Shown here piece by piece: positions 604 to 53,192 of a DNA stretch of 64,000 nucleotides (position 1 is the first letter of the stretch; each line of letters starts with the position of its first letter). The translations under genes and the position numbers were made by a program. Where the stretch lies: positions 32,001-96,000 of the IMG/VR virus record IMGVR_UViG_3300017766_005733. One strand, given 5' to 3'. Below the pieces are notes generated by a model. That model ran no database searches. It had not been told where the DNA came from and saw nothing but the letters and a program-made list of their open reading frames with translations. The stretch comes from a virus.

Positions 604-1839
604 TCAGCGCTTCAGCACCTGATCGGGATGCGTCAAGCCCATCTTCGCGCCAGCCTGATCGACGAGCCCCAAGGCGGTCTCAAGTGGCACCTTCTGGGCC
701 GAGGGCACGAAGCCTTCGTCAGAGGGCTCAGTGAACTTACCCGTCACCGCGCGATGAACGGCATCGTGCATCACCGTGTTCAGTTCCTTGTGGAAGACTT
801 CATCGGGGACGTGCAGCCCGATCTGCTCCGACAACTCGCGCTGCTTGTGTGCCGCCAGCCACTCCCAATGCACCGCCCGCTTGGCCTCGCGCATGCTGCG
901 CTGAACCCCCAGCTTGCCAATGCGTCGGCCCTCGCCGTAGATTTTGTTGAGTTCCGGATACACCAAGGCGTGGGAAAGTTCATGGATCTGACGCCACGCA
1001 TCCGTGTAGTCACGATCACCAAAATCACCACCCGACGACGGCGTGGGGTCGTACACCATCAGGTGCTTCGTGTTGTAGTTGCGGTTGGCGAGGTCGGGTT
1101 TGCCGTACTGGCCACCGGCGTAGTAGGTCTGAAAGCCGTGCTGAGCCACAAGATCACGAACCGCCGGCAGCTTGCCGCGGTAGTCGTAGTGAAACAGGTC
1201 GCTCTTGGTCCCCGGATGAATGTCGCCGTAGGGCTTGGCGTAGTGGGCGTACGTCGAAACGCCGACACCCGCCGCCTGCTCGTTGGCTGGCTTCGGGGGT
1301 GCGTCCATGTGCGGGTGCGCGCCCGGCTTCGGCGGCGCCGGGGGATTGTCGGCCTTCGCCAGCCCCGCCATGTGCATGCGCGTGTGGCCGTCATGCCACT
1401 CGTAGGCGTGGGGGTGCGGGTAGCGTCCCCGCGGGGCCTCTGACTTCGTCAGGGCCTGCTCCTGCGGCAGATGGCCGTCAGCGCCATGGCCACGGAAGCG
1501 ATAGACGCCCTTCTGGGCCTGCAGGCGCTGGGTGACTTCCGGCGGCACGGGGCCAATGGGCTCGATACCCAGAGCCTTGAGGTGCTGCGAGTACAGAGCG
1601 CCGTGGCGCTGGGCCTCTTCGATGGCGCCCGCGGCCTTGGCGGTCTTGGCGCCCATCAGGTGATGGGCGGCGGCGTTCAGGTGCTGGTCACGGACGTACT
1701 CGCCATGGGCCTGCTCTTCGGCGGCCTCGCGCGTCAGGCCGCGGCCGAACTCCAAAACCGCCGCCCGATGATCGAGTTCAGCGGCGTGACCGCCGTCCAT
1801 GATACGACGCCCCTGCCACATCCCATCATTCTTTGCCAT
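604..1839 (-). CDS. Putative head cargo protein with HExxH zincin metallopeptidase domain
   Basis: IHELSHAL motif; LTKSE and LAKAD linker motifs; start MAKNDG overlaps the upstream gene stop. Confidence 0.65.
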   Translation of the reverse strand: MAKNDGMWQGRRIMDGGHAAELDHRAAVLEFGRGLTREAAEEQAHGEYVRDQHLNAAAHHLMGAKTAKAAGAIEEAQRHGALYSQHLKALGIEPIGPVPPEVTQRLQAQKGVYRFRGHGADGHLPQEQALTKSEAPRGRYPHPHAYEWHDGHTRMHMAGLAKADNPPAPPKPGAHPHMDAPPKPANEQAAGVGVSTYAHYAKPYGDIHPGTKSDLFHYDYRGKLPAVRDLVAQHGFQTYYAGGQYGKPDLANRNYNTKHLMVYDPTPSSGGDFGDRDYTDAWRQIHELSHALVYPELNKIYGEGRRIGKLGVQRSMREAKRAVHWEWLAAHKQRELSEQIGLHVPDEVFHKELNTVMHDAVHRAVTGKFTEPSDEGFVPSAQKVPLETALGLVDQAGAKMGLTHPDQVLKR

Positions 1840-3283
1840 GATTTTGTCCCCGATAGACGGTGTCCAAGAAAGCGAAGATGGCGTCTTCCTTCCACTTGCC
1901 GCCAAAGGACAGCAGGTAGCTGGACTCCTTCTTCTCCAACTTCACGTCATTCGCCAGATCCCGGAAGCAGTAGCAGGCCTGAAACAGACCACCAGCCGAC
2001 AGCTGATGACCGTCACAGACGCCGCAGGCCGCCGTCAGCTGCTTCTCAGAGAGACGCAGCGACGGCAGCTTCATGGTAGCCTTGGGGGGCGGCGGCGGCT
2101 TGCGACCGCGCAGCTTCGGCGGCTGCACCTGCTGTCGACTCGGGGCATCGGGCTGAAGGGGGCCGGCCTGCTGCGTGGGTTTGTGCGCGGGCCCCGGCAT
2201 CTCAGCCGAGCCCTTTCCCGCCTTCTCCAGATCCGAGTGCAGCTGGTTGAAGTCGAAGTCGTGGGTGAAGATGCGGCCGTCGGGCAGGATCGTGTAGTAG
2301 TCCTCGGGCTTCTCGGCGTGCCACTTCGTGCCCTGACCCGGATGATGCTTACCGGTGTTCTCGCCGTTGACCATCAGCATCTTGTGATGCAGGCCATCGG
2401 AGTGAATCACGGATTCCTGCCCCAGATCACGAGCCAGCCCCTCGATCATCTTCGGGTTCTTGGGGTTGTAGACGATCAGGGAGTTCTCGGGGCGACCGTA
2501 GCTACCGATGGTGGGGTGAGCGTCTTCGCCGGCGTCGCGCAGGTACTGGACCGCCTGCTGGTTGCTGAGGTCCTTCGTCTTCGGGAAGAGGGGATTCTCG
2601 GCCGACATCAGGGTGTGGGGTGGCAGGGACTGCTCAGCCTTCTGCAGATCGAAGCCGACAAGTGACCGAACGGCATCCACCATCTTCTTTTCAAGAGTGG
2701 GGTAGCGGCGATCGGTCTCCATCGCCTGCAGCGTCAGCGACTTGTGGCCACCGGAAAGCGTCGCCTTGCCAACCTGCTGCCCCAAGCTGTTGACGGCATA
2801 CAGCAGCGTGAGTGGCGCCGGGCCGCTGACGTCGTATTCGTGCTCAAACGTGAACTCAGAGCGCTCAGACGCCATCTTGCGCAACGCCGCATGGGCGACG
2901 CGGGCGCCGACGAGGGCGTCAACGCTCTTTCCAAGGCGATACAGGTCGGCGTCCGACACGACCTCGGGCACGCGGCTGCGATCAAGGCCCATGACGACGC
3001 CAAGGGCCGCGGCGACGTGGAGCAGGGAGGCAGTGTCAAAGGAGTAGTCGACGTCGCCCAGCGTCATCGCGCCATGAAAGCCGGTGTCAGACTTCTGCAG
3101 CACCAGACGTCCGCCGACCCCCGGAATCTCGCCATCGTAGCCATGGCCGGCGAGGGCCAGCCAAGAATATAGGGCTCGTGGCACCATGGCGTTGTCAAGA
3201 TGCGGAAGGCGCTCCGCGGCCTTGCGAAGCGCCTTGGCGCCTTCAGGGCCGACGAGGGCCGTCAGGATCTGGTGTCGATTCAT
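1826..3283 (-). CDS. Multidomain putative head cargo protein with T3-type SAM lyase-like domain and C-terminal Cys cluster
   Basis: LMSAEN...YLRDAG...GSYGRPENSLIV...LARDLGQESVI...YYTILPDGRIF; six LxK[SAM] motifs; CGVC/CYC near the C-terminus. Confidence 0.65.
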   Translation of the reverse strand: MNRHQILTALVGPEGAKALRKAAERLPHLDNAMVPRALYSWLALAGHGYDGEIPGVGGRLVLQKSDTGFHGAMTLGDVDYSFDTASLLHVAAALGVVMGLDRSRVPEVVSDADLYRLGKSVDALVGARVAHAALRKMASERSEFTFEHEYDVSGPAPLTLLYAVNSLGQQVGKATLSGGHKSLTLQAMETDRRYPTLEKKMVDAVRSLVGFDLQKAEQSLPPHTLMSAENPLFPKTKDLSNQQAVQYLRDAGEDAHPTIGSYGRPENSLIVYNPKNPKMIEGLARDLGQESVIHSDGLHHKMLMVNGENTGKHHPGQGTKWHAEKPEDYYTILPDGRIFTHDFDFNQLHSDLEKAGKGSAEMPGPAHKPTQQAGPLQPDAPSRQQVQPPKLRGRKPPPPPKATMKLPSLRLSEKQLTAACGVCDGHQLSAGGLFQACYCFRDLANDVKLEKKESSYLLSFGGKWKEDAIFAFLDTVYRGQNHGKE

Positions 3284-3289
3284 GCCACA

Positions 3290-4180
3290 CTACCTCGGGC
3301 TGAAGGTCCCCTGCCGAGGGGCAGGAGCCTGTCGGGGATTGGGGGGCGGAGACAGGGCCTCGCCCTGCACCGGAGCCGCCTCCGACTCAAACAGATATTC
3401 CCGTTGAATAGCCAGACTCATAGGCATCCGCTGGACGGCGCTGCTGCCATCCACCATCTCGCCACGCGCCACGCGCACCTCGTGAATGAGATGCGTGACG
3501 TACCAGTAGGGGCGATAGAGGTAGCGAACGGCGCAGACCTGCCCCTTTTCGCCACTGATGGGCGCAAGCGGACGACGACCGCTGCCCCAGACGATGGCAC
3601 CACGATCAATAGCGAAGTCTACGCCAAGGTGGTAGCGGTTGCCGTCGCTGTCCACGAGATCGATGACGAACTCGATGGGGAAGCTGACGCGATCTCGTCC
3701 CGACACCGAGCACTCAAAGAGTTCCCAGTTGGTGACGAAGATGCCGGGCTCCATCAGGTACAGGCGATCGTACTTCGTGGCGTAGAACGGCGTCTGGGTT
3801 TCGTTGTAGAACCGCGGCGTCGTCAGCTGAGCCGAGCCCTCATTGACGAAGCCCGGCGCCACCTGACGATCCGACGACTGGTTGCCAGTGAAGACGGCAG
3901 TGATCTGGCCGCCCAGCGTGTAGATGAAGCCATGGCTGCAGCCAGCGTGATTGTCGTGCGACTTCCGGATGTCGGTGGTCGACGTCATGCCGATGGGGCA
4001 GCGCATAGCGCGATAGTGCAGGAAATGGATGCCATGACCGGAAATCGCGACGTCGAAGGCATCGGTATCGAAAGAAACGAGATCGCGTGGAAAATCCGAT
4101 ACCAGAGCCACCGCCGGAGGCGGCTCAGACAGTACCTGCCCCCCGATCACGGGGTAGATGCTGGGCGTTTCAGCGGCCAT
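3290..4180 (-). CDS. Head completion/neck-type virion protein
   Basis: Lies in the structural operon; beta-rich, with RAMRCP...C..G and YLYRPYWYV patterns like myovirus head-closure proteins. Confidence 0.55.
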   Translation of the reverse strand: MAAETPSIYPVIGGQVLSEPPPAVALVSDFPRDLVSFDTDAFDVAISGHGIHFLHYRAMRCPIGMTSTTDIRKSHDNHAGCSHGFIYTLGGQITAVFTGNQSSDRQVAPGFVNEGSAQLTTPRFYNETQTPFYATKYDRLYLMEPGIFVTNWELFECSVSGRDRVSFPIEFVIDLVDSDGNRYHLGVDFAIDRGAIVWGSGRRPLAPISGEKGQVCAVRYLYRPYWYVTHLIHEVRVARGEMVDGSSAVQRMPMSLAIQREYLFESEAAPVQGEALSPPPNPRQAPAPRQGTFSPR

Positions 4181-4528: not shown

Positions 4529-6580
4529 TCAGACGCCGGCCCAGAGGCCATTGACGAAGCCACCGAGGTCGCCGCCGGCTTCTTTGATCTGGCGCAGACG
4601 CATGATTTCAGGTCGAGGATCGATGTCAAAGGTCCTCAGAGCCTCGGCCATCTTCTCTTCCGAGAGAGACGCCAGCCAAGACTTCATGCGAATGGCAACG
4701 GACGCCGGCAAATCCGGCATCAGCGCCAGCTTCTGCTTCGGCGCAAGGGTGTTGAAGGTCTCACCCTGCGGCGTCATGAAGCGAAGGTAGAAGGGCGTGA
4801 AAGATTCCTGATCGTGGGCGGGATCGAAGTGGATGCCGGCGAAGGCCGATCCATGATCAATCAAATGGATCTCGCCCTGCGGATTCATGAGCATGTTGTG
4901 GCCATGCCGATCGCCGTTTCCCGCCACCCAGTCAAGGACCGACCACTGCCAAAGGCGGCCGCGGAGGCGGTAGGACTCCATGGCCGACAGCACCCGCCCC
5001 GGATCCTGTTCTCGGATGTCGATCAGAGGCTTGAACTCTTCTGGCAGGAAGCTGATGGCGGCGTAGAGTTTGTCGTCGACCTTGACCCACTCAGTGCGCG
5101 CGAGGTCGCCCGCAAGCCCCCAAGAGCGCGCAAGCTGCCAGAAGGCGCCTTCACGGGCACTCGGCGGCGCCGGATCGTCTTGGATGCCCTTGATGGGGCC
5201 GGCGCGGCCACTGCCCGGCTTCATGTACCAAGTACCGGCGGGGGTGTCGATGAAGAAGGAGCCAGCGCTGTGGCGACCATCGAGATGCGCTGGACGCGCA
5301 GAGAAGACATTGTCAGTCAGCAGCTTGGCGACGTCTTCGCCGCTGGCGTGCATGGCCTCGATCTTCGACCTCGGCGTCACAGGCAGACTGCTCTTGGCCT
5401 CCGCCTTCGTCAAAGACTCCGACTTCACCAGCGGCATCATCTCAACCGCCGCCTTCAGGATGCCTCGGTTCTCTGCGGTGTCGGGCCAGTTGATGGCAGC
5501 CAAGGCCGTGGCCACGGGATCGGCGTCGTTGAGCCACGCCAGATGCCGCAGGCTCAACAGTGCCTCTTCGTCGTCACGGGCCTTCTCGCCCGTCAGCGAC
5601 AGCGCCGCGCGCCAATGTGCATAGACGCCGGGAGGCAACGGCAACAGGAAGTCGCGGGCAACCTCCGACTTGTCAAGGCGAGCCGTCAACAGGCGGTCGC
5701 GCAGTTCCTCGGAGATGCGAGGCGGCAGGCTACGCATCATCGCCAGATGCCGCAGCCCCTCGCCGTCATGGAACGCGGCGTCCATCCACTGCTCAGCGTC
5801 TTCCTCCGTCAACGGCGCCGACAGCGGCACGCGCTCCCACGCCCCCTGCGGCAGCACCAGTTGCTCCCAGAACTGACGCCAGACGTCTTCGGGCATCAGC
5901 GCCTGCGCATCAGGGGAAGCAGAGGCGATGAACAGCAACAGCGGATTGTCCTGCGCCGGCAAGTCCGCCGGCGAGCGCTGCGCCAGCTGACGGTAGATCG
6001 TGGGGATGAAGTCAAGGGGCACAGCGGGCATCAAGGCATCGAGCAGATGCTGGCCGGCTTCAGGTGACTCAATGGCGAGTCGCTTCAAAAGCGCATCGCG
6101 GCCCTCTTTCGTGCGCAGCTGCTGGGCATTGTGCTCCGTAGCCGCGGGGTGGCCGACGATGTCGAGAAGGCGCTCCATCTTGACGTGACGCACTACGTCA
6201 CACCACGCCTTGCCGTCGTACAGCTGGTGAACGATATGGGGCGCCGGCAGATCATCGATGACGCGATCGGCGATGGCCTGCGAGACGTGGCGGGGGCCAA
6301 ACCCCGGCATCGTGGTAGCCAGTGCCCGCTCTCTTGCGTCATCGGCGGCCAGAGCCCGGTAGGCGTCGCGCTCTTCTTCGGGCGCTGGCTGGGAGGGAAC
6401 CTCGGCCGATGCCTTGTGGTTGAGGAAGAACTCGTGTGCCGTGGCGCGGATGGCGTTAGACGCCGCGGCGTTGCCGAGGGCATCGACATTGGCGATGGCG
6501 GCGGCGATCTGGTCGCGGGTGGCGCTGGGGCTCAGGATCAGCCTCTCAGCGGCCTTCAGTGTTGCGATGACGTTGCTCAT
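4529..6580 (-). CDS. Putative head cargo protein with C-terminal PI3/PI4-kinase/HipA-like kinase domain
   Basis: WYMKPG...REGAFW...LDWVAGNGDRHGHNMLM...LIDHG; preceded by LDKSE/LVKSE/LTKAE. Confidence 0.75.
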   Translation of the reverse strand: MSNVIATLKAAERLILSPSATRDQIAAAIANVDALGNAAASNAIRATAHEFFLNHKASAEVPSQPAPEEERDAYRALAADDARERALATTMPGFGPRHVSQAIADRVIDDLPAPHIVHQLYDGKAWCDVVRHVKMERLLDIVGHPAATEHNAQQLRTKEGRDALLKRLAIESPEAGQHLLDALMPAVPLDFIPTIYRQLAQRSPADLPAQDNPLLLFIASASPDAQALMPEDVWRQFWEQLVLPQGAWERVPLSAPLTEEDAEQWMDAAFHDGEGLRHLAMMRSLPPRISEELRDRLLTARLDKSEVARDFLLPLPPGVYAHWRAALSLTGEKARDDEEALLSLRHLAWLNDADPVATALAAINWPDTAENRGILKAAVEMMPLVKSESLTKAEAKSSLPVTPRSKIEAMHASGEDVAKLLTDNVFSARPAHLDGRHSAGSFFIDTPAGTWYMKPGSGRAGPIKGIQDDPAPPSAREGAFWQLARSWGLAGDLARTEWVKVDDKLYAAISFLPEEFKPLIDIREQDPGRVLSAMESYRLRGRLWQWSVLDWVAGNGDRHGHNMLMNPQGEIHLIDHGSAFAGIHFDPAHDQESFTPFYLRFMTPQGETFNTLAPKQKLALMPDLPASVAIRMKSWLASLSEEKMAEALRTFDIDPRPEIMRLRQIKEAGGDLGGFVNGLWAGV

Positions 6581-9500
6581 GGTTCACCGTAGGACGCCGC
6601 GATGGCTTTGCCCTTCTGATACTCTTTCTGCGCCGTCTTCAGGTATTCGTCAAGATGTTTCGACGTGCCGTCGGAGATCAGCCAGTCTTTGAGGTTGTCG
6701 TGCAGCGACTCATAGCCCTTGTTCCAGCCCATGGCCGACTTGGGCTCCATGCCGTTGTTGATCATGATCAACGAGATCAGGTTGCCGAGACGCGCGTCTT
6801 CGACGCCGCCGCCGTGCGAAGGACTGCGCTTGGCCAACAGGGCGTGGTTGACCACGGCGTTGTTGAGGCGTTCGTTGTCGCCGGCGATCTCGCGACGATG
6901 AGCGAACCCCACAAGGCGAGCGAACTGCGCGCAGTTGTGGGTGTAGGCCATAGGCGTCTTGGCGTCCACCTCGCCGTCGTTCGTGAAGTGGAAGAACTGC
7001 TTGTCTTCTCGACGCTTCTGATGTTCTTCGGGCGTCGAGGCCGCCGGCATAAGATGATCGAAGGCGATGTCGTGGGAGTAGTGACGGGCGGGGATCTCCG
7101 TGGAGGCCTCTTCCATTGCCGCCTGTGGCCCGAGCCCCTTGCCGCGCCCCTCGTAGTCGTGGTCGCGATGCGAGACGCTGTGAAACAGTTCGTGCATCAC
7201 CACCGCCCATGAATCATGATGGGCCTCAGGGTTGAAGGCCGCGGTTCCGCCAAGGGATTCCATGAACTGGCCGGCGTGAGTCTCATGTACCCGGACGCCA
7301 CCACCATTTTTGGTCCCGTAATCGCCGAGGACGCCGGGGGGCAGCTGCTGGCTGGTGGCCCTGACAACCGACGTCAGGGGCAGCGAGTTGCCGCCTTCGT
7401 TGATGCCAGTGACGTGAGCCAGACCCCGACGCAGGCGCTGCAGATGAGGTGCGTTCTGGCCGTCATCAAAGGCCGCCCCCCACTTGTTCAGCGTCTCGCC
7501 TCGCACCTGCCCAAGAGCCTTGCTACGCAAGTCCCCCGGCGCCGCGGCCGCAGCCCGCATGGCCTTGTTGTGGGCCGCGTAGATGTCACTTGGCTGATGC
7601 GGGAACGAGAAGTGCTCGTGCTTGGGCACGAACGACGGGTCGATCTTCGGCGGCGGCCGATTCACGAAGTCCATCTTCTTCAGGCGCTCAGCTGCGGCGC
7701 CAGCGTGCGCGGACTCCTGCCAGAACTTGTCCTGACCGTAGGCGCGCACCACACTCACCGGCTGCTTCGCGAGATGCGTCGGGTCTTTGCTCTTCAGCGG
7801 CTTCCAGAACTCGTGGTTGCCCGTGGGCTCGCCGACGGCCTTCTCGGCCTTCAGCAGATACGAGTACGGGCCGGCGCGTTCGTCGTAGTCCTGTCCCGTG
7901 GTCACATGTGACTTGTACTCGGGCTCGTAGCCGAGGCCGTGCTTTGCCGCCAACTGCATGTGGGTACGAGAAGCGGCCGTGGAATGCTCTTCGCCGGCGA
8001 CGCTGCGCAGCCGCAAGTGATTCTTTGCGTGCGACAGCAGGGCCTCATACATCGCCACGCCCAGCCGCTGCTTCCTCAGACCTCGGTGCAGGAAGGTGTT
8101 GGTGACGTTGAGCGTCTTCTTGTCGACGCGACCAGTGACTGTACCCACCTGCTTGCCCTCGACGTTGTAGAGTCGGGCCGTGGGCATAGGGTCGCCGGTT
8201 TCATCCGGAACATCGCTGACGCGCAGCGACAGCCCCTGACTTCGATGCTCAGGCGTCAAGACGTGGTTGTAGTCGAAGCTGTTGGCACCGACCTTCTGCC
8301 CCACGGGAATGTCCTTGAGCGCCATCTTGCGCAGGAACGATTCGCGGTATGGGCCGTAGCTATCAAGGGCCTCTTTGGCGCTGGGCTCGTGATCGATGTC
8401 GCCGGCGACAGAGTAGAGTCTCGTCATCGGGCGACCGCTGAAGTCCTTCTCCTCGATGAAGCGCTTGTTGGGACTGTCTAGTGCCTCGTCGAGGCTTGCG
8501 ATTGGAAAGCCATTCAGCTTCGCCGATGCCACGGGGTTTTCGTTCCACGGCTCTGATGTCTGCGCGTGGTGCTGCTCTGGCGTCTCGGGGGCACCCTTGG
8601 CGCCAACGACGCCGGGCATCGCAAGGATCTTGTCCCAGACCTTGTTGGCCGTCGGCGAAACCGACTTGTCGCTTCGCATCTTTCCGTGATACCGCAGCAT
8701 GCGCTGATACAGCAGGGTGCCGTATCCGGAGCCTTGAGCGCTGCCATGGGTTGCTGTTTCGCCGTGCTCGACGACGCCATTGCTGTCGACGCTGGCCGCC
8801 GAGGAGGAAACAGGGAACCCAAAAGGCTCCTTGTCGTAAGACAGCATGTGCATCACGCTGTATCCGCCGTGGTCGTATGGTGTGTCCTTGACGACATGGT
8901 GGTACAGGGGCTTCTCGCGGCTGCCGTGGTCTTCCCCAGCCGGGCGCTGGCTGTGAGGCACCCGATACGTCTCGATGCTCTGCAGGCCACCCTCGTACTG
9001 GCTGGTGCGATGAGGCCTCATGCCATGCTGCACGGCCTCGTAGGCCATCTTGTGCAGGTAGTCAGACTTCTTGAGGGTGCCGGGCTTGATCTTGACCTTC
9101 GCCGGCGCCTTCATGCCCTGCATCGTCTTCATGTACTCTTTGACGTAACCCGACTTGGCGATCTGCTGAGGCGTGGCGTTGATGGCCGCACCGCGACCCC
9201 AGCGCCAGCCGTAGGCCGTGCGCTCAGGCGTCTTCAGCTTGTCCTGCAGCCACTTCCAGTGATCGGAGGCGACCTCGTTGTAGAACTTGTGGTCGCTCTG
9301 GAACTTGGCGGTGAAAGAGTCCTGATCCAATCCCGGATACTTCGCCTGCAGGCCTTTGCTGTTCTGGTACTGGTCGTAGCCCGACACGGGCTTGAAGCCA
9401 ACGGCGCCGAAGGCCGTGTGGAAGGGCCCCTTGGAATGCGCGGCGTGCTTGATGTTCTTGCCAAACGACGACTCCAGCTGCGCCACCGGATGCAGACCCG

Positions 9501-11052
9501 GATGCAGGCCCTCGGGCGTCCATTGACTCGACTCTGCAGCGGGAGCGGGAGCAGAAATGGGAGCAGCGACAGCCGGCGCAACGACAGGCGCCAGCTTGGC
9601 CTCAGGCGCACGGCCATGGAGCCCCAAGCCCAGCCCACCGAGGCCGATGGCGGCCGCCAGCGCCTTCTCTTTCAGGCCCTTTTCAAGGTGCTGGTGGGTG
9701 TCACCGAGACGCAGCGTCGGCATGGCATCCGCCACACGCTGCACGTCCTCTTCCGTGGCCGGGCTTTCGTAGTCGGGCAGGCGATGATGATGGATGTCAA
9801 CAACGGCAGTCGGCTGATGGGTGTGGATCTGCTCGTGATTGAGCCAGCTACCCAGCCAGTCGCCGGCTGCGTGGTCGCCATAGGCGTCGTGGATCGTGTC
9901 GCCAATGCGGGCGCCGACGTGATGGATGTCGTCACCCATCTGGATCCCCACCAGCCTCGCCTCAGGGTGCTTCTTCTGGATGGCCCTTGCCAGAAGGCTG
10001 CAGCCGCCGGCGTGCCACGTCGATCCCGCGGCGGCCGTCTGGTCAAGGACGCCAAAACTCTCGTCGGAGCCACACCACTCGGCGATTCCAGAGCCCTTTG
10101 CGAGGGCCTCAGACTTCATGATGTTAGAGTGAAGCGACGGATTGGCGTTGAAAACACTCTTGATCTGATGGGGGTAGAAAGCAACCCAAGTCCCATCGCC
10201 GAAGTCGACTCCGTCGTGGCCCTTGTTCCTCAGCCCATCGAAGAAGGCGGCCTGCCACTTGGCATAGTTGGGGGCCATCCGGTGACTTTCAACGTCTTGC
10301 GGCTGAAAGACATAGGGGTTCTTGATCGACAAATGGACGGGCATGACGCGAGGGGCGTTGTTGCGATCAACGATCTGACCGCCGGAGAACACTGGTCCGC
10401 GGCTGTCGTTGTCGACGGCATACATCGACGCTTCTTTCGGATCATTCGTAAACCAAGCGCCCCGCTTGCCGATCTTGAAAGAAGAAAAGTCGACGTCTTT
10501 TGACGTCCCATGGTAGAGTTTCAGGGGCTTGCCTTGCGGATCCTTGACGTGCGACCCCGAAAACCACTCTTGGAACTCGGGGGTGTCGTGCTTCGCCAGT
10601 CCGTCGGCTTGCGATTCCCCATCCTGCATCCCCAGCAGCTGCAGCGTCACGTTGCGCGGCGAATGCAGATTGTCGGCGATCTCCTTCGGCAGCCCCTCAC
10701 TGACATCGACCCAGCGCCACTCACTGCACTCGTTGTCGGGGTCTTCTTCCGTCGTGACGCGCGGCTTTTCTTCGTCGTGGAACGTCACCTGATAGGCATG
10801 GACAAGGATCTTGCGGCCACGGCTTTCGACGACGTCAGAGCCGAGGGATTCCAGCACCTCGTTCCCCGTCTTCAGGCCCGTCTCTTCCCGGAGTTCACGG
10901 ACGGCGCCTTCGTAGGCCTCTTCGCCGTCCTCCAAATGGCCGCCGGGCAGCGTCCAACGACCGTTGTCGCGCCGCCGCCCCCAAAGCATGTCACCGGCGC
11001 CATCAAAGACGGCAATAGAAGCAACCTCGACGGCATCCTTGGTATCAGCCAT
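6577..11052 (-). CDS. Polyvalent protein, 1491 aa: Nudix, ADP-ribosyltransferase, Cys-His-Asp domain, lysozyme/SLT-like, 2x GNAT, zincin
   Basis: Nudix box GGHLEDGEEAYEGAVRELREETG; ART-like YHGT...WFT...VMPVHLSIKNP...GHDGV...QIKS; GGC...HH...HD; QLESS; QGSGYGTLLY and RKQRLGVAMY; HELFH...EE. Confidence 0.85.
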   Translation of the reverse strand: MADTKDAVEVASIAVFDGAGDMLWGRRRDNGRWTLPGGHLEDGEEAYEGAVRELREETGLKTGNEVLESLGSDVVESRGRKILVHAYQVTFHDEEKPRVTTEEDPDNECSEWRWVDVSEGLPKEIADNLHSPRNVTLQLLGMQDGESQADGLAKHDTPEFQEWFSGSHVKDPQGKPLKLYHGTSKDVDFSSFKIGKRGAWFTNDPKEASMYAVDNDSRGPVFSGGQIVDRNNAPRVMPVHLSIKNPYVFQPQDVESHRMAPNYAKWQAAFFDGLRNKGHDGVDFGDGTWVAFYPHQIKSVFNANPSLHSNIMKSEALAKGSGIAEWCGSDESFGVLDQTAAAGSTWHAGGCSLLARAIQKKHPEARLVGIQMGDDIHHVGARIGDTIHDAYGDHAAGDWLGSWLNHEQIHTHQPTAVVDIHHHRLPDYESPATEEDVQRVADAMPTLRLGDTHQHLEKGLKEKALAAAIGLGGLGLGLHGRAPEAKLAPVVAPAVAAPISAPAPAAESSQWTPEGLHPGLHPVAQLESSFGKNIKHAAHSKGPFHTAFGAVGFKPVSGYDQYQNSKGLQAKYPGLDQDSFTAKFQSDHKFYNEVASDHWKWLQDKLKTPERTAYGWRWGRGAAINATPQQIAKSGYVKEYMKTMQGMKAPAKVKIKPGTLKKSDYLHKMAYEAVQHGMRPHRTSQYEGGLQSIETYRVPHSQRPAGEDHGSREKPLYHHVVKDTPYDHGGYSVMHMLSYDKEPFGFPVSSSAASVDSNGVVEHGETATHGSAQGSGYGTLLYQRMLRYHGKMRSDKSVSPTANKVWDKILAMPGVVGAKGAPETPEQHHAQTSEPWNENPVASAKLNGFPIASLDEALDSPNKRFIEEKDFSGRPMTRLYSVAGDIDHEPSAKEALDSYGPYRESFLRKMALKDIPVGQKVGANSFDYNHVLTPEHRSQGLSLRVSDVPDETGDPMPTARLYNVEGKQVGTVTGRVDKKTLNVTNTFLHRGLRKQRLGVAMYEALLSHAKNHLRLRSVAGEEHSTAASRTHMQLAAKHGLGYEPEYKSHVTTGQDYDERAGPYSYLLKAEKAVGEPTGNHEFWKPLKSKDPTHLAKQPVSVVRAYGQDKFWQESAHAGAAAERLKKMDFVNRPPPKIDPSFVPKHEHFSFPHQPSDIYAAHNKAMRAAAAAPGDLRSKALGQVRGETLNKWGAAFDDGQNAPHLQRLRRGLAHVTGINEGGNSLPLTSVVRATSQQLPPGVLGDYGTKNGGGVRVHETHAGQFMESLGGTAAFNPEAHHDSWAVVMHELFHSVSHRDHDYEGRGKGLGPQAAMEEASTEIPARHYSHDIAFDHLMPAASTPEEHQKRREDKQFFHFTNDGEVDAKTPMAYTHNCAQFARLVGFAHRREIAGDNERLNNAVVNHALLAKRSPSHGGGVEDARLGNLISLIMINNGMEPKSAMGWNKGYESLHDNLKDWLISDGTSKHLDEYLKTAQKEYQKGKAIAASYGEP

Positions 11053-15897: not shown

Positions 15898-16199
15898 TCC
15901 TCAGTGGTGTTGAAGGCCCAGACATGGTTGGTGGCGTACTCGACGATGAACGAAGGCGCTGGCCCGTACCAAGTCTGGCTGTGCTTGACGGCCAGAATCG
16001 CGGCCTCAAAGTCGGAGAACCCCATGCCCTCGGGCAGCGTCGGGGCATAGACAAAGAAGCGCGGAACGGTGCGAGCGAAGCGATCCATGCCAAAGGCGAC
16101 AACGGGCAGGGTCGGCCGGTCTGACTTTGGCAGAAGGACTTCTGCGTGAGTAATAGGAGCCATGCCCATTGGCGGAACCATCCAGTTCATGAACGTCAT
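15894..16199 (-). CDS. Hypothetical protein
   Basis: ATG 16199 overlaps the upstream stop. Confidence 0.5.
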   Translation of the reverse strand: MTFMNWMVPPMGMAPITHAEVLLPKSDRPTLPVVAFGMDRFARTVPRFFVYAPTLPEGMGFSDFEAAILAVKHSQTWYGPAPSFIVEYATNHVWAFNTTEE

Positions 16200-17605
16200 G
16201 AAGCGACGATAGCCGATGACGATGAAGGTGTCAAGTCCATCTCCCAGCGAACAAGACCGCAGTCCCAGATACGCGCATAGCCGCGAGCCGCCATCTCCTC
16301 GTGCTCCGTTACCTCGTCGCCCACCCCCAAGGCCGCCTTGCGAAACTTCGATCGATGCCAACGATGGCGATCTGATCCCTTTTTGATGTACCAGTATCCC
16401 GGTGGAAGAACCTCAGCCGCGATAAACCCTGAGCGCTCGTAAATGCCGCCACTAGACCAACGACGATCAGAGAAGGTGACGATGCGCGTGGGGCGCAGGA
16501 CGGCGATGGCGCCACTCAACAGCCGCTGAAGGCCACCGGCGACATGAAGTCGTTCCGTCAAAGCGTAGCGAGAGAGTTCCCAGACGCCATCGCCGCGATG
16601 ACGAAAACCAGCGACAGCCACCAGTTCGCCGCTATGCCTCAGCCCCCAACAACGAGTCTCGGCTCCCGCGGCCTGCAGGTGATGAGCGTCGAAGAACTCA
16701 GCCGCTGTCTTGATGTCGACCTCGGCCACCTCGCACTTCCGCGCTCCAACTCGCTGACCCGGCAAACCAGAAAGCGCCTGAAGGTAGGCGCAGCAAATGG
16801 CACGACGCTGAATCCACTCGTCGGAAAACACCGTCACCAGCCTTATGCCGAGGCGCTCACAGGCCTGCAGCTTCTCCAGATGCCGCCTACGAGCCTTCTC
16901 TGGCGTATGGATCTCGCTGTGATAATGAAGACCGCAGTATTCTATGGCCAAAGACAGGGACGGCACCCATATGTCAATCTCAAGCGGAGAAATGACGTGG
17001 CGCACGTTCTCAAAGACCTCCAACCCTGCTTGGCGAAGGAGATCGGCGATCTCCCCCTGAGCGTGGCTCTTCACACACCCACAAGAACGCACCTTCATGT
17101 ACAAGAAATCAAAAGAACGGACATGGAACAGTCTGCCGCAGTGACAGTGCAACTGCAGGCCATCACGTCCCAGCGGGATAGGGGCGTCTGCGTCTAGGTC
17201 ACACCGCATCCCCAGTCGCTGCGCCACGACATGGACGTCACGCCCCCGGTACTTGGTCCGGTCTTCTTCAGGAATGTCCCTCCAACGCCTTTTTGAAGCC
17301 TTGGATACTTCCGCTCGCAGCGTCTCGTCTCGCCATGCCGTTCGGACGGAGGCAGCACGGCGCTCTAAGACCTCTGGGGTAAGAGACTTTCGCATCGTCT
17401 CCCAAGCATCGGGATCCTTTGCGAGGCGGCCGGCTCGTGCATTTTCTTGCCTCTTGTCTGGGGGCAAGGAAAACCGGGCGCGAGTCTGGATGTTCTTGAT
17501 CTGTGAAACCGTGAGCCCAAGGCGTTGGGCGACGGCCTCGCGCGTCATGCCCTCGGCCCGCAACCTCACGACTTCGTCGACCAGATCCTGAGAGAAAGCC
17601 TTCAT
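16196..17605 (-). CDS. Free-standing putative homing endonuclease (HTH, Zn ribbon, Vsr/Hef-like nuclease, GNAT-like C-terminus)
   Basis: CHCG...SCGC; LEIDIWVP...AIEYCGLHYHS...VFSDEW; FFDAHHLQ...WELSRY...FSDRRWSSG...RIWDCG; codon usage differs from neighbours. Confidence 0.75.
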   Translation of the reverse strand: MKAFSQDLVDEVVRLRAEGMTREAVAQRLGLTVSQIKNIQTRARFSLPPDKRQENARAGRLAKDPDAWETMRKSLTPEVLERRAASVRTAWRDETLRAEVSKASKRRWRDIPEEDRTKYRGRDVHVVAQRLGMRCDLDADAPIPLGRDGLQLHCHCGRLFHVRSFDFLYMKVRSCGCVKSHAQGEIADLLRQAGLEVFENVRHVISPLEIDIWVPSLSLAIEYCGLHYHSEIHTPEKARRRHLEKLQACERLGIRLVTVFSDEWIQRRAICCAYLQALSGLPGQRVGARKCEVAEVDIKTAAEFFDAHHLQAAGAETRCWGLRHSGELVAVAGFRHRGDGVWELSRYALTERLHVAGGLQRLLSGAIAVLRPTRIVTFSDRRWSSGGIYERSGFIAAEVLPPGYWYIKKGSDRHRWHRSKFRKAALGVGDEVTEHEEMAARGYARIWDCGLVRWEMDLTPSSSSAIVAS

Positions 17606-17650
17606 GCCACACCCCATTACCCCAGAGGCATAGCATAGATTCAACCGCGT

Positions 17651-17692
17651 AAAAAAAGCAAGATGGAGGCCGTTACCAGCCTCCATCTTGCT
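17651..17692 (-). terminator. Rho-independent terminator after the major capsid gene
   Basis: GCAAGATGGAGGC / GCCTCCATCTTGC stem followed by T7 on the minus strand. Confidence 0.85.
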
Positions 17693-17716: not shown

Positions 17717-19126
17717 TCAGCGCAGGTTGTCGATCAGCGCGTTCTTGCGGGGCTGCATGACCGCCAGCGTCGCGAAGCGGAAGTGCGCCTCGGGGATGCT
17801 GAGGTCGGCAACCGCCAGCTTCAGGCGGCTGTACGGCGCCAGTTCCTTGATCTCCATCGTATCGCCCTGAAGCAGGAAGCCGGTGACGAAGCCGGGCTGC
17901 TTGTTGCCGATGTCGATGAAGCTGGTGGTGCCGGTGGCCGCGGCCACGACGCGACCGATGAACTTCGCCGACGCCGCCGTGCCGCCAGCGGCGGAACGGT
18001 AGACGTTGAGGAAGCGGGTCGTGCCCGAGCCCGAGGGCGTGATCACCAGCGTGACGCCGTGACCGGCGGTCGCGATGGTGGCCGACGACGACAGCGAGGC
18101 CGCCGACTCACCGACTTCGTTACCAGCGGTAACGTAGTAGGTGTAGACCTCACCAGCGAGGAACGGCGTCGTGGCGCCCGAGATGGCACCCGGCGTCGCC
18201 GACGTGAGGGTCGGAGCCGACGGGCCGTCGGGACGCGACGGAGACGGACGGGTCTTGCCGCTGAGGAAGCGCGAGGCCTCCACGGCGACCGTCGCGTTCG
18301 ACGTCCACTGCTTGCGGAGGTCCGCGCCCGTCGCGCCCTGCGGCGAGCCGGCGAGGATGATGCGCTCCTTGCCGAAGACGATGCGGTTGTAGACGCTGAG
18401 GACGCGCGGGTCGACGACCAGCTTGTCCGCATTGCCCATGTGCATCGCCGAACGAACCGACGCTTCCTCGATCAGGTCCTGCGAGAGCGCGCCGCCACCG
18501 GGGACAACGCACGACTCATCGGCACCGAACTCGGCGAAGTAGCGGTCCTGCGCCGTCGCCTGATTGTCCGACTGACGGATCTGCACGTCCACGCCGATCA
18601 TGTTCGCCATGACGCCGGGGATCGCGAGCGGGTTGCCGTCGAAGACACCAGCGTTGCTGAAGTCGGCGCGACCACGGAAGAGGTCGAACTCGACGTCGGC
18701 AGCGATGATCTTCGCAGCGTCGGCAGCCGCACGGTCATCCGCAGCCACACCGTCGACCGTCGACACGAGCGTCGAGGCGATGGTCACGCGGCGGTGGTGG
18801 CTGTAGTAGCACATCGGCACGACCACACGCACGAAGTCGCTGGTCTTCTCGGCGCCGAGGTTGCCTTCCAGCTGCGCCGAACCACCGAAGTGGCCGTACG
18901 ACAGCTGACGGTCGAACTGAGCGAGGGTCGACTTGACGGCCTTCGACTTCAGCATCGACTGCAGCTTGATGTGGCTGTCGTCGAAGGTGACGTTCTCAAG
19001 GACCGGCGACAGGTCTTCGACCTGAAGCGCGGCGCCCTGAACGAGGGACGAGGGGGCAGCGTTGTAGGAGCCGGCTTCAAGGGCCTTGACCAGCTTCTCC
19101 AGCTGCTCGATGGAACTCGGGTTCAT
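17717..19126 (-). CDS. Major capsid protein (SPO1/Twort-like type)
   Basis: N-terminal LVKALEAG...GAALQVEDL, typical size, downstream of the scaffold, GGAGG RBS, strong terminator, highly biased codons. Confidence 0.85.
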   Translation of the reverse strand: MNPSSIEQLEKLVKALEAGSYNAAPSSLVQGAALQVEDLSPVLENVTFDDSHIKLQSMLKSKAVKSTLAQFDRQLSYGHFGGSAQLEGNLGAEKTSDFVRVVVPMCYYSHHRRVTIASTLVSTVDGVAADDRAAADAAKIIAADVEFDLFRGRADFSNAGVFDGNPLAIPGVMANMIGVDVQIRQSDNQATAQDRYFAEFGADESCVVPGGGALSQDLIEEASVRSAMHMGNADKLVVDPRVLSVYNRIVFGKERIILAGSPQGATGADLRKQWTSNATVAVEASRFLSGKTRPSPSRPDGPSAPTLTSATPGAISGATTPFLAGEVYTYYVTAGNEVGESAASLSSSATIATAGHGVTLVITPSGSGTTRFLNVYRSAAGGTAASAKFIGRVVAAATGTTSFIDIGNKQPGFVTGFLLQGDTMEIKELAPYSRLKLAVADLSIPEAHFRFATLAVMQPRKNALIDNLR

Positions 19127-19182: not shown

Positions 19183-20028
19183 TCACTTCAGCAGATGGGA
19201 CAACTTGCTCGCATCGACGTTGCCGCCGAGGAAGAAGTCGTTGATGAGTTCGCGATCGCTCTTGGTCAGCGACGCATCGCGGACCTTGGAGCGCAGCTTC
19301 GCGGCCATCTCCGACTTCGACAGCTTCGGCGCCACGGCGGCAGCCGCGGGCGTCAGCATGGTTTCGGCCTTGCGCATGGGCTTGGAGACGACGGCCTCAA
19401 AGGCGCCGATCACTCGCTCCAACATCTTGCCCTGCTCCTCAAGGCTCTTCTTCAGGGCGGCGACCTCGGTGGTCTCCGACTTCGCGATGGGCTTCATCTG
19501 CCCACCGTTGCCGTCGGCCTTCATCTCGCCCTTCATCGCCGGCGGCGGAGCCGCGGGAGCCGATGCCTCAGGGGCGCCGGCACCAGCAGCAGGACCACCA
19601 GCGCCCATGCCGCCACCCATCGCCGCAGCGAGGGCAGCCTGAGCCGCTTCCGCGTGCATCTTCAGTTCGTCAAGCGGCAGCTTGGCGTACTCAGACTGCA
19701 GCGCAGCCGGGTCCATGGCGCCACCAGCGTCGGGACCCTCGCCACCCTCGTCACCGGGGGCAGCCGGGTCGTCGGCCGGCGACGCGGAGGCCTCAGCGCC
19801 ATTGGCGCTTTCCTCCGACGGACCACCGTCGTCGTCTTCCGCGGCGGGGGCCGGGGCCGAAGCCTCGCCCGCGTCGTCGGCATCCATCTTCGACTTCTCG
19901 TCATCACCCGCGGCCTTGGCCAGCTTCTCAGCCCGGTCCTTCTCCGACTTCGCGATGTTGACGAGGACATTCTGGACATCGGCCAGAATGGCATCGATGT
20001 CGACGTTCGTGAGATCAGGGGTAGACAT
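19183..20028 (-). CDS. Capsid scaffolding protein
   Basis: Acidic Ala/Pro-rich coiled coil directly upstream of MCP; seven [LIM]xK[SA] motifs; AAGGAGG RBS. Confidence 0.7.
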   Translation of the reverse strand: MSTPDLTNVDIDAILADVQNVLVNIAKSEKDRAEKLAKAAGDDEKSKMDADDAGEASAPAPAAEDDDGGPSEESANGAEASASPADDPAAPGDEGGEGPDAGGAMDPAALQSEYAKLPLDELKMHAEAAQAALAAAMGGGMGAGGPAAGAGAPEASAPAAPPPAMKGEMKADGNGGQMKPIAKSETTEVAALKKSLEEQGKMLERVIGAFEAVVSKPMRKAETMLTPAAAAVAPKLSKSEMAAKLRSKVRDASLTKSDRELINDFFLGGNVDASKLSHLLK

Positions 20029-20067
20029 GGTGTAGTCCTCCTTGTTGAGTTTTGAGGAATACAACCA

Positions 20068-20980: not shown

Positions 20981-21175
20981 ATCGGATTTGGGCAGGTGTG
21001 GCGCCAGCCGCCGCTTGGCTTCGGCCACGAGTTCAAACAGGGGGCGATTGGCGTCCATGATGACCTCATGGTAGGGTGTGCCGATCAGTCGCACGCGCAC
21101 GCCCACCGTGCGATGACCGATGGCGATCTTGCCGTCTTCAGCCAGTGGCACCACGATATATTTGCCGTCAACCAT
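20942..21175 (-). CDS. Small hypothetical protein
   Basis: Overlaps the GGDEF gene stop; AAGGA RBS. Confidence 0.5.
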   Translation of the reverse strand: MVDGKYIVVPLAEDGKIAIGHRTVGVRVRLIGTPYHEVIMDANRPLFELVAEAKRRLAPHLPKSDLLTGFAVRDLTR

Positions 21176-22415
21176 TTTCCTTACCTCCCGGCGCCACGGT
21201 AGCGGGCTGCGGCGCGGGAGTCAAGGAGGAAGACATGGCTGGCTGCTTGAGCAGGGAGTGGAAGCGCAGGGGCTTGGTGGGCTGCACCATGCGCGCATCC
21301 ATGCCCGGATTCTGGGCAAGAGCCTCGGCGATTTCTGCCCTCTTGCCATCCTTCGCCATCAGCAGTGCATCGTCGGCGACCTTGGGGTTTTCGCCAAGGC
21401 CAACGCTGAAGCCCACCTTGTGGGTGCCGCCGACGTCTGGCAGCTTCGACAGGTTGTCGTGCAGCTGGCGCAAGACCATGTGCGCCTGCTCCGGCGTCTT
21501 CGTCCAGAAGTGGAACTCGTCGCCGCCAAACCGATGCGCCTTGGCGTTGTCGTGCCCCACCGTCTGATCGATGGCCGAACGCAGGGACTGCCCCAGAGAC
21601 TGGATGGCCTTGTCGCCTTCAGGGTGGCCATGGGCGTCGTTGATAGCCTTCATGCCGTCGCCGTCCAGCATCGCGTGGACGCCGGTCTGGGCTTCGGGGC
21701 TGGCCATGAAGTCGCGGTACGCTCGCTTGTTACCCAGCGACGGAATCATCTCGTCGTGGTAGAGTTCCTTGCGCAGGGCCTCGTAGTGGTCTTTGTGCAG
21801 GTGCCCGGCGTCAACCAGCGCCCTCAACTGCGAGAAGGTATCGTTCAGCGACGACTTCCGGAGAGGCGCAAAGGCTTCAAAAGCCTTCATCGCCGACTTC
21901 TTGAAGTCACCCAGATCCGGGGGCGTGACATAAGTGATCTTGGCTACGCCCTTCTTGGCGTTGTCCAGCATCACCTGCACATCGTCGCGCGAGACCTCTT
22001 TGCCGTCGAGAGTCAACCGGCCACTCTTCGCCTCCAGCACCCGCGGGACGCTGTAGCCCTCACGATGATAATGGAAGACGCCGTCGCGGGTCGGGGCTTG
22101 CGTGACTTCGCCGCCATCAGCGGCGTCTGAGTCACCGAAGACCTCGTTCTCCCAATCGTCGACCTGTGCCTGCTCGTTGGCCGGCTTCTTCTTGTCGACG
22201 AGGTAGTAGTGGCTGTTCATCAGCGACTCAATGCGGCTCTGGTGTCGCGCCAGAGGCTGCTCATCGAGGCCGTCAAGGATGCCTTCGTGGTCTTCCACGA
22301 CGTGGATAACGCCGTCGTGAAGGATGTACTTGCCGACAAGGCGCGGATGCACGCTCATCCGCTTGAAATCGGGATGAAGAGCGTAGACGAGATAGGTATC
22401 AAAAGTCGGCATCAT
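21168..22415 (-). CDS. GGDEF-domain diguanylate cyclase in the head operon
   Basis: LGNKRAY...MLDGDGMKAINDAHGHPEGDKAI...HRFGGDEF...FSVG...ADDALLMAK; catalytic motif intact. Confidence 0.88.
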   Translation of the reverse strand: MMPTFDTYLVYALHPDFKRMSVHPRLVGKYILHDGVIHVVEDHEGILDGLDEQPLARHQSRIESLMNSHYYLVDKKKPANEQAQVDDWENEVFGDSDAADGGEVTQAPTRDGVFHYHREGYSVPRVLEAKSGRLTLDGKEVSRDDVQVMLDNAKKGVAKITYVTPPDLGDFKKSAMKAFEAFAPLRKSSLNDTFSQLRALVDAGHLHKDHYEALRKELYHDEMIPSLGNKRAYRDFMASPEAQTGVHAMLDGDGMKAINDAHGHPEGDKAIQSLGQSLRSAIDQTVGHDNAKAHRFGGDEFHFWTKTPEQAHMVLRQLHDNLSKLPDVGGTHKVGFSVGLGENPKVADDALLMAKDGKRAEIAEALAQNPGMDARMVQPTKPLRFHSLLKQPAMSSSLTPAPQPATVAPGGKENG

Positions 22416-52770: not shown

Positions 52771-53192
52771 TTTGTCAAAGATGCAACAAGGACGAGCGAT
52801 ACAAAGATGGCAAATGCAAGCCATGTGCTCGCGCAAGAGCCAGAGAAGACTACCATCAAAATGCCGAAAAACGGAAAAGACAGGCACAGGAATGGAAAGA
52901 GAATAACCGAGAAAGAGCCAGAGCCTCGGGTCGCAGGGGAGGACGAACTGATTGGCAGCCGGGTGAGCACGAAAGAGCAGAGGCCGCCCTAAAGACGGCA
53001 AACCGGTGCGAGGTCTGTGATAGCGTCGACCCTCGCCATAAACGTGGATGGAACGCCGACCACGATCACGCCACCGGGCTTTTCCGTGGCATCGTCTGCC
53101 ATCCATGCAACATTGCCATCTCTCATGTAGAGAAGTTTGACCTAGACCGCGGGCAGCAGGTCTGGTACTACCTTGCAAGGAAGAAACGATGA
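52767..53192 (+). CDS. Free-standing Endonuclease VII-type HNH homing endonuclease splitting dnaE
   Basis: CEVC...DHDHATGLFRGIVCHPCN; ATGA overlaps with both dnaE fragments; lower GC than flanks. Confidence 0.88.
   Translation: MICQRCNKDERYKDGKCKPCARARAREDYHQNAEKRKRQAQEWKENNRERARASGRRGGRTDWQPGEHERAEAALKTANRCEVCDSVDPRHKRGWNADHDHATGLFRGIVCHPCNIAISHVEKFDLDRGQQVWYYLARKKR

Follow-up and report, generated by a model that had tools for sequence, protein, structure and literature searches.

The window analysed here is a stretch of 64,000 nucleotides, bases 32001-96000 of the 131,625-base IMG/VR virus record IMGVR_UViG_3300017766_005733 (estimated to be 80% complete), and the subject of this study is one of its open reading frames (ORFs), encoding a protein of 485 amino acids (aa), P0001, in which residues 216-354 form a module resembling the S-adenosyl-L-methionine (SAM) lyase of bacteriophage T3 (Table 1). 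The ORF belongs to a long minus-strand block whose first half carries, in order, genes for terminase, portal, a 1569-aa polyprotein, a GGDEF protein, a scaffold-like protein and the major capsid protein, and which continues with nucleotide-metabolism genes, a phrog_772 protein, a 1491-aa polyvalent protein, a 683-aa kinase-like protein, the phrog_1004 virion structural protein and the module ORF. Myxococcus phage Mx1 is the sole DNA-level relative in the phage collection (66% identity across the portal region); the gene order of the window is syntenic with Mx1, which has the same order of this block and encodes a module-bearing protein of 559 aa directly before its tail sheath gene. A first-pass annotation, made from the sequence alone, had placed a T3-type SAM lyase-like domain at 2222-2640 and quoted from it the strings TLMSAEN, VQYLRDAG, GSYGRPENSLIV, LARDLGQESVI, MLMVNG and YYTILPDGRIF. 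All of these are found in the 485-aa ORF, and the module is flanked, as that annotation said, by DLQK/AEQ and DLEK/AGK (here and below a slash marks a putative cut). The location was correct, but the span itself is two bases out of frame and stops on translation, the in-frame span being 2222-2638.

Table 1. Position of the SAM lyase-like module, its key motifs and other genes of the window (window coordinates).
Feature	Position	Strand	Basis or remark
Module-bearing ORF P0001, 485 aa	1826-3283	-	G+C at third codon positions (GC3) 0.80; conserved in contig L005; N-terminal 1-215 and C-terminal 355-485 (Cys-rich) without assignment
SAM lyase-like module, residues 216-354, 139 aa	2222-2638	-	Homologue scan, family profiles, predicted structure
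G-S-Y-G-R-P-E-N-S, residues 260-268	2480-2506	-	G260/Y262/E266 (domain G45/Y47/E51) aligned with T3 G55/Y57/E68
G-Q-E-S, residues 288-291	2411-2422	-	Q289 (domain Q74) aligned with T3 Q94; E290 with T3 D95
N-side linker L-Q-K/A-E, residues 213-217	2633-2647	-	Putative maturation cleavage site
C-side linker L-E-K/A-G, residues 352-356	2216-2230	-	Putative cleavage site; fifth position G, not E/D
HExxH (HELSH) ORF, downstream of module ORF	604-1905	-	Likely true start an internal ATG (MAKND...)
Virion structural protein, upstream neighbour	3290-4180	-	phrog_1004, E 5.3e-09
PI3/PI4-kinase-like domain protein	4529-6580	-	
Polyvalent protein, 1491 aa (NUDIX, ART-PolyVal, GNAT), same operon	6577-11052	-	Pfam
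Homing/HNH endonuclease	16196-17686	-	phrog_3339, E 7.1e-77
Major capsid protein	17717-19126	-	phrog_752, E 3.7e-48
Scaffold-like protein, 293 aa, Ala/Glu/Lys-rich, between 152-aa ORF and capsid gene	19183-20064	-	Position and composition
GGDEF diguanylate-cyclase-like protein	21168-22415	-	Pfam, E 3.3e-11
Polyprotein, 1569 aa (ParB_N, PI3/PI4-kinase-like, DUF6321), after portal gene	22419-27128	-	Pfam
GroEL-like chaperonin	39614-41473	+	phrog_5725, E 3.3e-86
DNA polymerase, first ORF	51100-52770	+	phrog_405
DNA polymerase, second ORF	53189-56605	+	phrog_405; extra inserted sequence

A full phmmer scan of the 139-aa module against 1.84 billion representative proteins returned 503 matches at E <= 1e-3, 276 at E <= 1e-10 and nine at E <= 1e-30. 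Among the 150 matches listed, the module occurs as a standalone protein of 136-141 aa or in an N-terminal, internal or C-terminal position in proteins of up to 2043 aa, and the termini of the standalone forms lie no more than a few residues from A216 and K354. The module is thus a mobile domain whose limits match those drawn in the first-pass annotation. The domains that share a chain with it in 44 multidomain relatives include GNAT (7/44), PI3/PI4-kinase-like (7/44), DUF5661 (6/44) and ART-PolyVal (3/44) domains, the same repertoire as is found in the neighbouring genes of this phage, and a diverged copy that retains G-K-Y, E-N-S and Q-E-S lies within a giant ORF, annotated 'structural protein; DUF3293', of a Flavobacterium podophage. 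One close locus was returned when the single module was used as query, on another IMG/VR contig (L005), whose ORF is 87% identical to P0001 in the module, 62% in the N-terminal part and 70% in the C-terminal part. Nei-Gojobori nonsynonymous divergence (dN) between the two is 0.080 in the module and 0.318 and 0.21 in the flanking N- and C-terminal parts, with synonymous divergence (dS) saturated. Constraint within the gene is strongest in the module, which is under purifying selection.

The enzyme family concerned is already known, and Pfam captures some of the relatives of the module. The S-AdoMet_lyase profile (PF23780) matches 16 of 20 short relatives (37-48% identity; E <= 1), with a best E of 6.2e-09, and 12 of the 44 multidomain relatives at E <= 1e-3; when ten relatives were scanned singly, three exceeded the cut-off of 28 bits (33.0, 34.1 and 28.7), four fell below it and three had no match. 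PHROG 2226, the family of T3 gene 0.3, matches seven of the 20 short relatives, and its label, 'SAM-dependent methyltransferase', is the RefSeq label of T3 gene 0.3. DUF3293 (PF11697), a family to which the module had been proposed to be linked, matches eight of the 20 (best E 1.2e-06) and one of the ten scanned singly, at 14.4 bits against a cut-off of 25; the module of P0001 has no match to it at E <= 1, and the proposed link therefore holds for the relatives and not for the module itself. An NCBIfam scan of 20 family members gave nothing relevant.

An AlphaFold2 model of the module, built on a 36-row alignment, has a predicted local distance difference test score (pLDDT) of 95.6 and a predicted template modelling score (pTM) of 0.89. 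In domain numbering, its predicted strands lie at 8-11, 39-46, 50-57, 76-80, 84-89, 97-107, 115-117 and 123-128, with a short terminal one in addition, and its helices at 26-35 and 62-71, giving nine strands and two helices in total. The predicted elements of the model fit the published account of T3 SAM lyase (SAMase), a monomer folded as a barrel of nine strands with two helices on its outside (bioRxiv 10.1101/2023.02.27.530186). A Foldseek search of the PDB placed 8bb1_E, a T3 SAM lyase chain (E 2.2e-03, TMq 0.59), and chains of 7ock at the top, with the SAM lyase Svi3-3 at rank 5 (6zm9) and rank 7 (6znb). VIA-align of the Foldseek candidates gave Z 11.1 for 8bb1_E (root-mean-square deviation 3.4, 122 residues aligned), 10.8 for 7ock_J and 5.8 for both 6zm9 and 6znb, the next unrelated chain scoring 4.8. 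A search independent of Foldseek, over 48,161 PDB representatives, returned T3 SAMase 7ock_L as the sole chain with Z >= 8 (Z 10.3, 123 aligned), followed by Svi3-3 at 5.8 and all other chains at or below 4.8. The predicted model thus has a structural match to the SAM lyase fold, at Z 10.3-11.1. The BFVD search returned 22 viral models at E <= 1e-3, the first of them an 'ART-PolyVal-like domain-containing protein' and, from a Flavobacterium phage, a 'structural protein', with many small proteins of T7-like phages after these; several of the weaker rows (E 1.8e-03 to 7.1e-03) are named S-adenosyl-L-methionine hydrolase.

Of the residues of Svi3-3, only Gly56, Glu69 and Gln104 are strictly conserved in active SAMases according to Guo et al. 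(PMC7877911), who also describe Tyr58 as packing against the gamma carbon, Glu105 and Ser106 as holding the carboxylate, and E68 of the T3 enzyme as the equivalent of Glu69. Andriianov et al. report that E68Q and Q94A each lower the activity of T3 SAMase five-fold and that the double mutant is inactive. In an unsupervised MAFFT alignment of eight module-family members and seven T3-family proteins, only four columns are invariant, and these pair G45, E51, Q74 and G103 of the module with G55, E68, Q94 and G125 of T3; Y47 (T3 Y57) and H85 (T3 H105) are near-invariant. An hhalign comparison over 118 colinear columns gives the same residue mapping at a non-significant E of 0.053, and the mapping thus rests on these two alignments and not on a significant profile-profile score. 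Among the best 150 of the 503 relatives, G45 is kept in 142, Y47 in 146, E51 in 145, S53 in 142, G73 in all 150, Q74 in 149, E or D at position 75 in 147, S76 in 142 and H85 in 145, and the Q-E-S string of the module is identical to Gln104-Glu105-Ser106 of Svi3-3. The first-pass identification of a T3-type SAM lyase-like domain is supported by the family profiles of the relatives, by the predicted structure, which is the decisive evidence on the fold, and by the conserved Gly, Tyr, Glu and Gln positions, and we consider it very probable that the module has the fold and the ancestry of T3-type SAM lyases.

The SAM lyases known from T3-like phages are small proteins made from early genes. T3 gp0.3 (8BB1, 7OCK) is a 152-aa protein and the first early gene product, whereas the module is embedded in a 485-aa protein of a late operon; the enzyme typically occurs as a free-standing early-gene product of about 125-150 aa, a setting that the module does not share, although standalone relatives of 136-141 aa exist. 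The likeness to T3 gp0.3 lies in the whole-domain fold, with the same number of strands and helices in a predicted single-chain barrel, and in the equivalents of G55, Y57, E68, Q94, D95 and H105 that the module keeps; the identity in structural alignment is only 12-16%, and the loop from the Tyr to the Glu is shorter in the module (three residues versus ten). The match with Svi3-3 (6ZM9, 6ZNB) covers the ferredoxin-like half at the core (Z 5.8, 86-87 residues), and the Gly-x-Tyr, Glu and Gln-Glu-Ser residues agree with those given as binding the substrate. This is in contrast to the quaternary structure, since Svi3-3 is a trimer with its active sites between subunits, whereas the module has the extra C-terminal strands, as predicted, that close a monomeric barrel of T3 type. 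Such a barrel, unlike the Svi3-3 trimer, may suit a module that perhaps works before its release from the longer protein.

The residues around the domain limits recur among the relatives as L-x-K-S-E, x-K-N-E and F-x-K-S-E. Counted as [LFIMV]-x-K-[SNATG]-[ED], a pattern defined after viewing the data, in the 149 listed relatives that remain when the near-identical P0002 is excluded, the motif lies near the C-end of the domain in 66 of the 111 relatives that continue for at least 25 residues (about 8% expected, judged by how often it occurs in the rest of these proteins) and near the N-start in 28 of the 57 with at least 30 residues upstream (again about 8% expected). In L005 the N-side site reads L-K-K/N-E despite diverged preceding sequence, and the C-side site is identical to that of P0001. 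Among 112 ORFs of the phage's own genome, called by codon-position GC and with expectations taken from shuffles, the motif is present 30 times where 16.8 would be expected; 22 of the occurrences fall in seven head- or virion-region proteins (3.5 expected) and eight in the other 105 genes (13.3 expected). The counts in these seven are five in the scaffold-like protein (0.42 expected), six in the 1569-aa protein (1.34), three in the 683-aa protein (0.28), three in the 1491-aa protein (0.86), two in the module ORF (0.30), two in the portal (0.24) and one in a 103-aa protein (0.09). One of the motifs in the 1491-aa protein starts six residues past the end of the ART-PolyVal match, and a looser pattern, L-x-K-[SAG], occurs five times in the module ORF against 0.99 expected.

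Scaffolds are classic protease substrates in T4-type heads. A motif that is dense in a scaffold-like protein and that borders cargo modules would resemble the site of a T4-type head-maturation protease, and the linker [LIMFV]-x-K/[SANTG]-[ED] is probably such a site; were it so, the module would be freed at about the size of its standalone relatives. The earlier claim that the domain is bracketed by cleavage sites is supported indirectly, by the presence of the motif on both sides of the domain in distant relatives and by its high density in the scaffold-like protein, but a search for the protease found none. The counterpart by gene order of the 1569-aa protein in Mx1 was labelled 'putative prohead protease' by its depositor; the protease fold was not confirmed.

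The setting of the module resembles that of the phage polyvalent proteins, for which Iyer et al. 2017 (PMC5512222) proposed packaging and injection as a counter-defence; the same paper gives T4 Alt as packaged in the capsid. Relatives of the module fuse it to domains of the kind found in these proteins (ART-PolyVal, GNAT and kinase modules; the P1 Dar proteins are further members of the group), and the context is one of late structural genes. P0001 itself has one module assigned, and its relatives and neighbouring genes clearly fit the polyvalent pattern. A difference is the recurrent lysine-containing linker at module borders, which the passages of PMC5512222 consulted do not describe. With residues 1-212 of P0001 as query, the ESM Atlas gave weak GNAT-like leads, at scores of 0.75-0.79 that are below the tool's own reliability line. 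The prohead protease of T4 trims capsid cargo, namely the internal proteins and Alt, at L/I-x-E. The likeness to this cargo is one of concept, namely effectors that enter the head, are cut at a short motif also scattered through the scaffold, and pass into the host with the DNA; the difference is that the putative site here would have Lys at P1 followed by a small and then an acidic residue at P1'-P2'.

Taking these features together, we favour, on balance, a reading in which residues 216-354 are a T3-type SAM lyase cassette of a late-operon cargo polyprotein that is cut out at its linkers and delivered by the virion. Of its parts, we think it likely, from the conserved residues and the predicted fold, that the module catalyses SAM cleavage, and regard the chances for and against linker cleavage and capsid delivery as evenly balanced. 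Delivery by the virion before phage transcription, as had been proposed, may occur; its basis is gene position, the architectures of the relatives and depositor annotations only. On this reading, the 485-aa protein would be made late and would enter the prohead with other cargo polyproteins, where cuts at K215/A216 and K354/A355 would free a monomeric barrel of 139 aa to be ejected with the DNA. SAM would then be bound through G260/Y262, E266 and Q289-E290-S291 and converted by intramolecular lactonisation to 5'-methylthioadenosine and homoserine lactone, and the loss of SAM would starve Type I restriction-modification and bacteriophage exclusion (BREX) systems of their cofactor.

What weighs against this interpretation begins with the sequence statistics. 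The module of P0001 scores 15.3 bits against PF23780 (E 0.019, profile positions 14-130 of 133), below the cut-off of 28 bits; the whole 485-aa protein has no Pfam family at E <= 1 and no PHROG family; a six-frame PF23780 search across the genome gave nothing at E <= 1; and PDB sequence searches with the single module and with the family profile gave no matches. The colinearity with T3 gp0.3 that had been seen by eye fails in pairwise comparison (BLASTP E 9.5) but holds at the level of the fold, where model residues 1-128 lie on residues 1-153 of 8bb1_E, and the T3 strings quoted in support of it all occur in the T3 gene 0.3 translation from NC_003298. None of the hhalign comparisons with T3 is significant (E 0.35 with the single T3 sequence, 0.053 with a 14-member T3-family alignment, 0.01 in global mode), and a local one with 150 sequences gave an unrelated 24-column match (E 0.15). 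Of the Foldseek check against T3 SAMase, the ranking stands, with SAM lyases in the top rows, but no row reaches E <= 1e-3. These pairwise and profile-profile statistics, together with the commonness of ferredoxin-like folds (many rows lie at Z 4-5), would be in keeping with a chance likeness or a generic alpha-beta sandwich, the module being an inert structural spacer. We consider this highly improbable: the T3 match spans 122-123 of the 139 residues at Z 10.3-11.1, with the best chain outside the SAM lyases some 5.5-6 units lower (4.8), two independent profile libraries agree on the family, and purifying selection on the module is strong. A further caution attaches to the chemistry, since the residue equivalences derive from sequence alignments and not from residue-level superposition in three dimensions, and H8, S12, E14-N15-P16, G92, G96, P111, D113 and H126 are near-invariant positions specific to the family. 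G92 aligns with the near-invariant G114 of T3; for the others the T3 family offers no conserved equivalent, which leaves room for a different substrate. The module could accordingly share the fold and ancestry of SAM lyases and act on another adenosyl or sulfonium metabolite, or merely bind SAM or a host protein, an alternative that we consider unlikely. It would accommodate the sub-threshold Pfam score, the near-invariant S-x-E-N-P, P111, D113 and H126, the absence of a known function for the DUF3293 family that eight of 20 relatives match, and the second, non-catalytic activity of T3 SAMase, MetK binding, reported by Andriianov et al. Against it, at least 142 of the best 150 relatives retain each of the four SAM-binding positions of three SAMases whose activity is established by experiment, the Q-E-S string is that of Svi3-3 as given in PMC7877911, and the residues that contact MetK are not conserved. 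The contacts T4, N9, Q103 and T104 are described as strictly conserved in the T3-like SAMases that bind MetK (bioRxiv 10.1101/2023.02.27.530186), whereas in the module the N-terminal tail is absent and Q103/T104 align to L83/H84; inhibition of MetK is therefore not claimed, and the module is not placed in the MetK-binding subgroup.

The remaining adverse points concern processing and delivery. The C-side site, LEK/AG, is without the acidic fifth residue of the strict motif, and the Flavobacterium copy of the module is without flanks of the linker type. An eight-row alignment model of the N-terminal 190 aa of the 1569-aa protein, a segment with seven relatives, has a pLDDT of 44.5; Pfam on eight members of this segment gave nothing relevant, and PDB searches for a protease in the 1569-aa protein gave a ParB-type match further along, or nothing. 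The main quantitative doubt is one of dose: T3 makes about 10,000 SAMase molecules per cell (Andriianov et al.) and Svi3-3 turns over 9.5 times per second (PMC7877911), and the tens of molecules that a capsid would carry are likely to fall far below the T3 figure. It is therefore conceivable, if rather unlikely, that the module is an active SAM lyase that is not injected and works late in the cytoplasm or within the uncleaved protein, the L-x-K-[SA] stretches being flexible joints or recombination seams. Such a role would fit the small dose per virion, the outcome of the protease search in the 1569-aa protein, and a literature search that found no source paper for the 'structural protein' label in Flavobacterium. 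It would leave unaccounted for a motif density that is highest in the scaffold-like protein (5 vs 0.42) and depleted outside the head region (8 vs 13.3), as well as the agreement in length between the linker-bounded module and its standalone relatives, and polyvalent proteins in virion-gene contexts are those proposed in PMC5512222 to be packaged and injected.

No description of a SAM lyase built into polyvalent or virion proteins was found in the full-text literature, a scope that leaves most subscription journals and supplements outside. The main text of PMC5512222 holds no mention of SAMase, S-adenosylmethionine, AdoMet or DUF3293, its external domain tables lying outside this scope and an unindexed mention being possible, and no mention of DUF3293 was found in the full-text literature. 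If the delivery of a SAM lyase cassette is true, over 500 protein clusters would hold the same enzyme, built as a module into large late or virion proteins, and the destruction of a cofactor would join the pre-packaged counter-defences beside Alt-type ADP-ribosyltransferases and the P1 Dar proteins. A large tract of domain space now lacking annotation, DUF3293-like sequences among it, would also gain a function, and the lysine-containing linker common to scaffold and cargo would offer a simple rule for reading phage cargo polyproteins. More tentatively, and with some doubt on our part, SAM lyase, GNAT, kinase, ADP-ribosyltransferase and NUDIX cassettes may all be joined by a shared linker, cut in the prohead like the scaffold and injected, so that SAM-dependent defences would be hit before transcription. 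Were this broader picture true, the occurrence of the same border motif in distant low-GC relatives would point to a grammar of protease plus cargo conserved across phage lineages.

Other genes of the window bear on the module or lie near it. The ORF directly downstream, which contains an HExxH motif, has no Pfam or PHROG family match; relatives such as P0013, P0033, P0097, P0136 and P0143 carry its motifs joined to the C-terminal side of the module. The ORF and the module form a conserved fusion or neighbour pair, and the ORF might encode a zincin-type processing peptidase. In the module-bearing Mx1 protein WNM70344.1 (L001 5185-6864), P-A-[ST]-K-E-x-A-N-G-G-P repeats stand on both sides of the module, and a Cys-rich tail follows F-G-K/S-E. 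The scaffold-like protein has no family match. The N-terminal peptide of the capsid protein, right after L-V-K, resembles approximately residues 369-395 of the 1569-aa polyprotein, which follow M-K-K, with 15 of 26 positions identical by eye. PI3/PI4-kinase-like domains are found in two separate virion-region proteins, this polyprotein and a protein close to the module ORF (Table 1). The head gene block also holds the GGDEF diguanylate-cyclase-like protein, whose Mx1 counterpart by order is annotated 'nucleotide cyclase', and the homing/HNH endonuclease gene stands directly after the major capsid gene. Neither a second copy of the module nor DNA methyltransferases of the PF01555 and PF00145 families were found in the 131,625 bases of this approximately 80% complete genome. 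On the plus strand of the window there is a gene for a GroEL-like chaperonin, and the DNA polymerase is spread over two ORFs, of which the second contains additional inserted sequence, an arrangement suggestive of a split gene or an intervening element.

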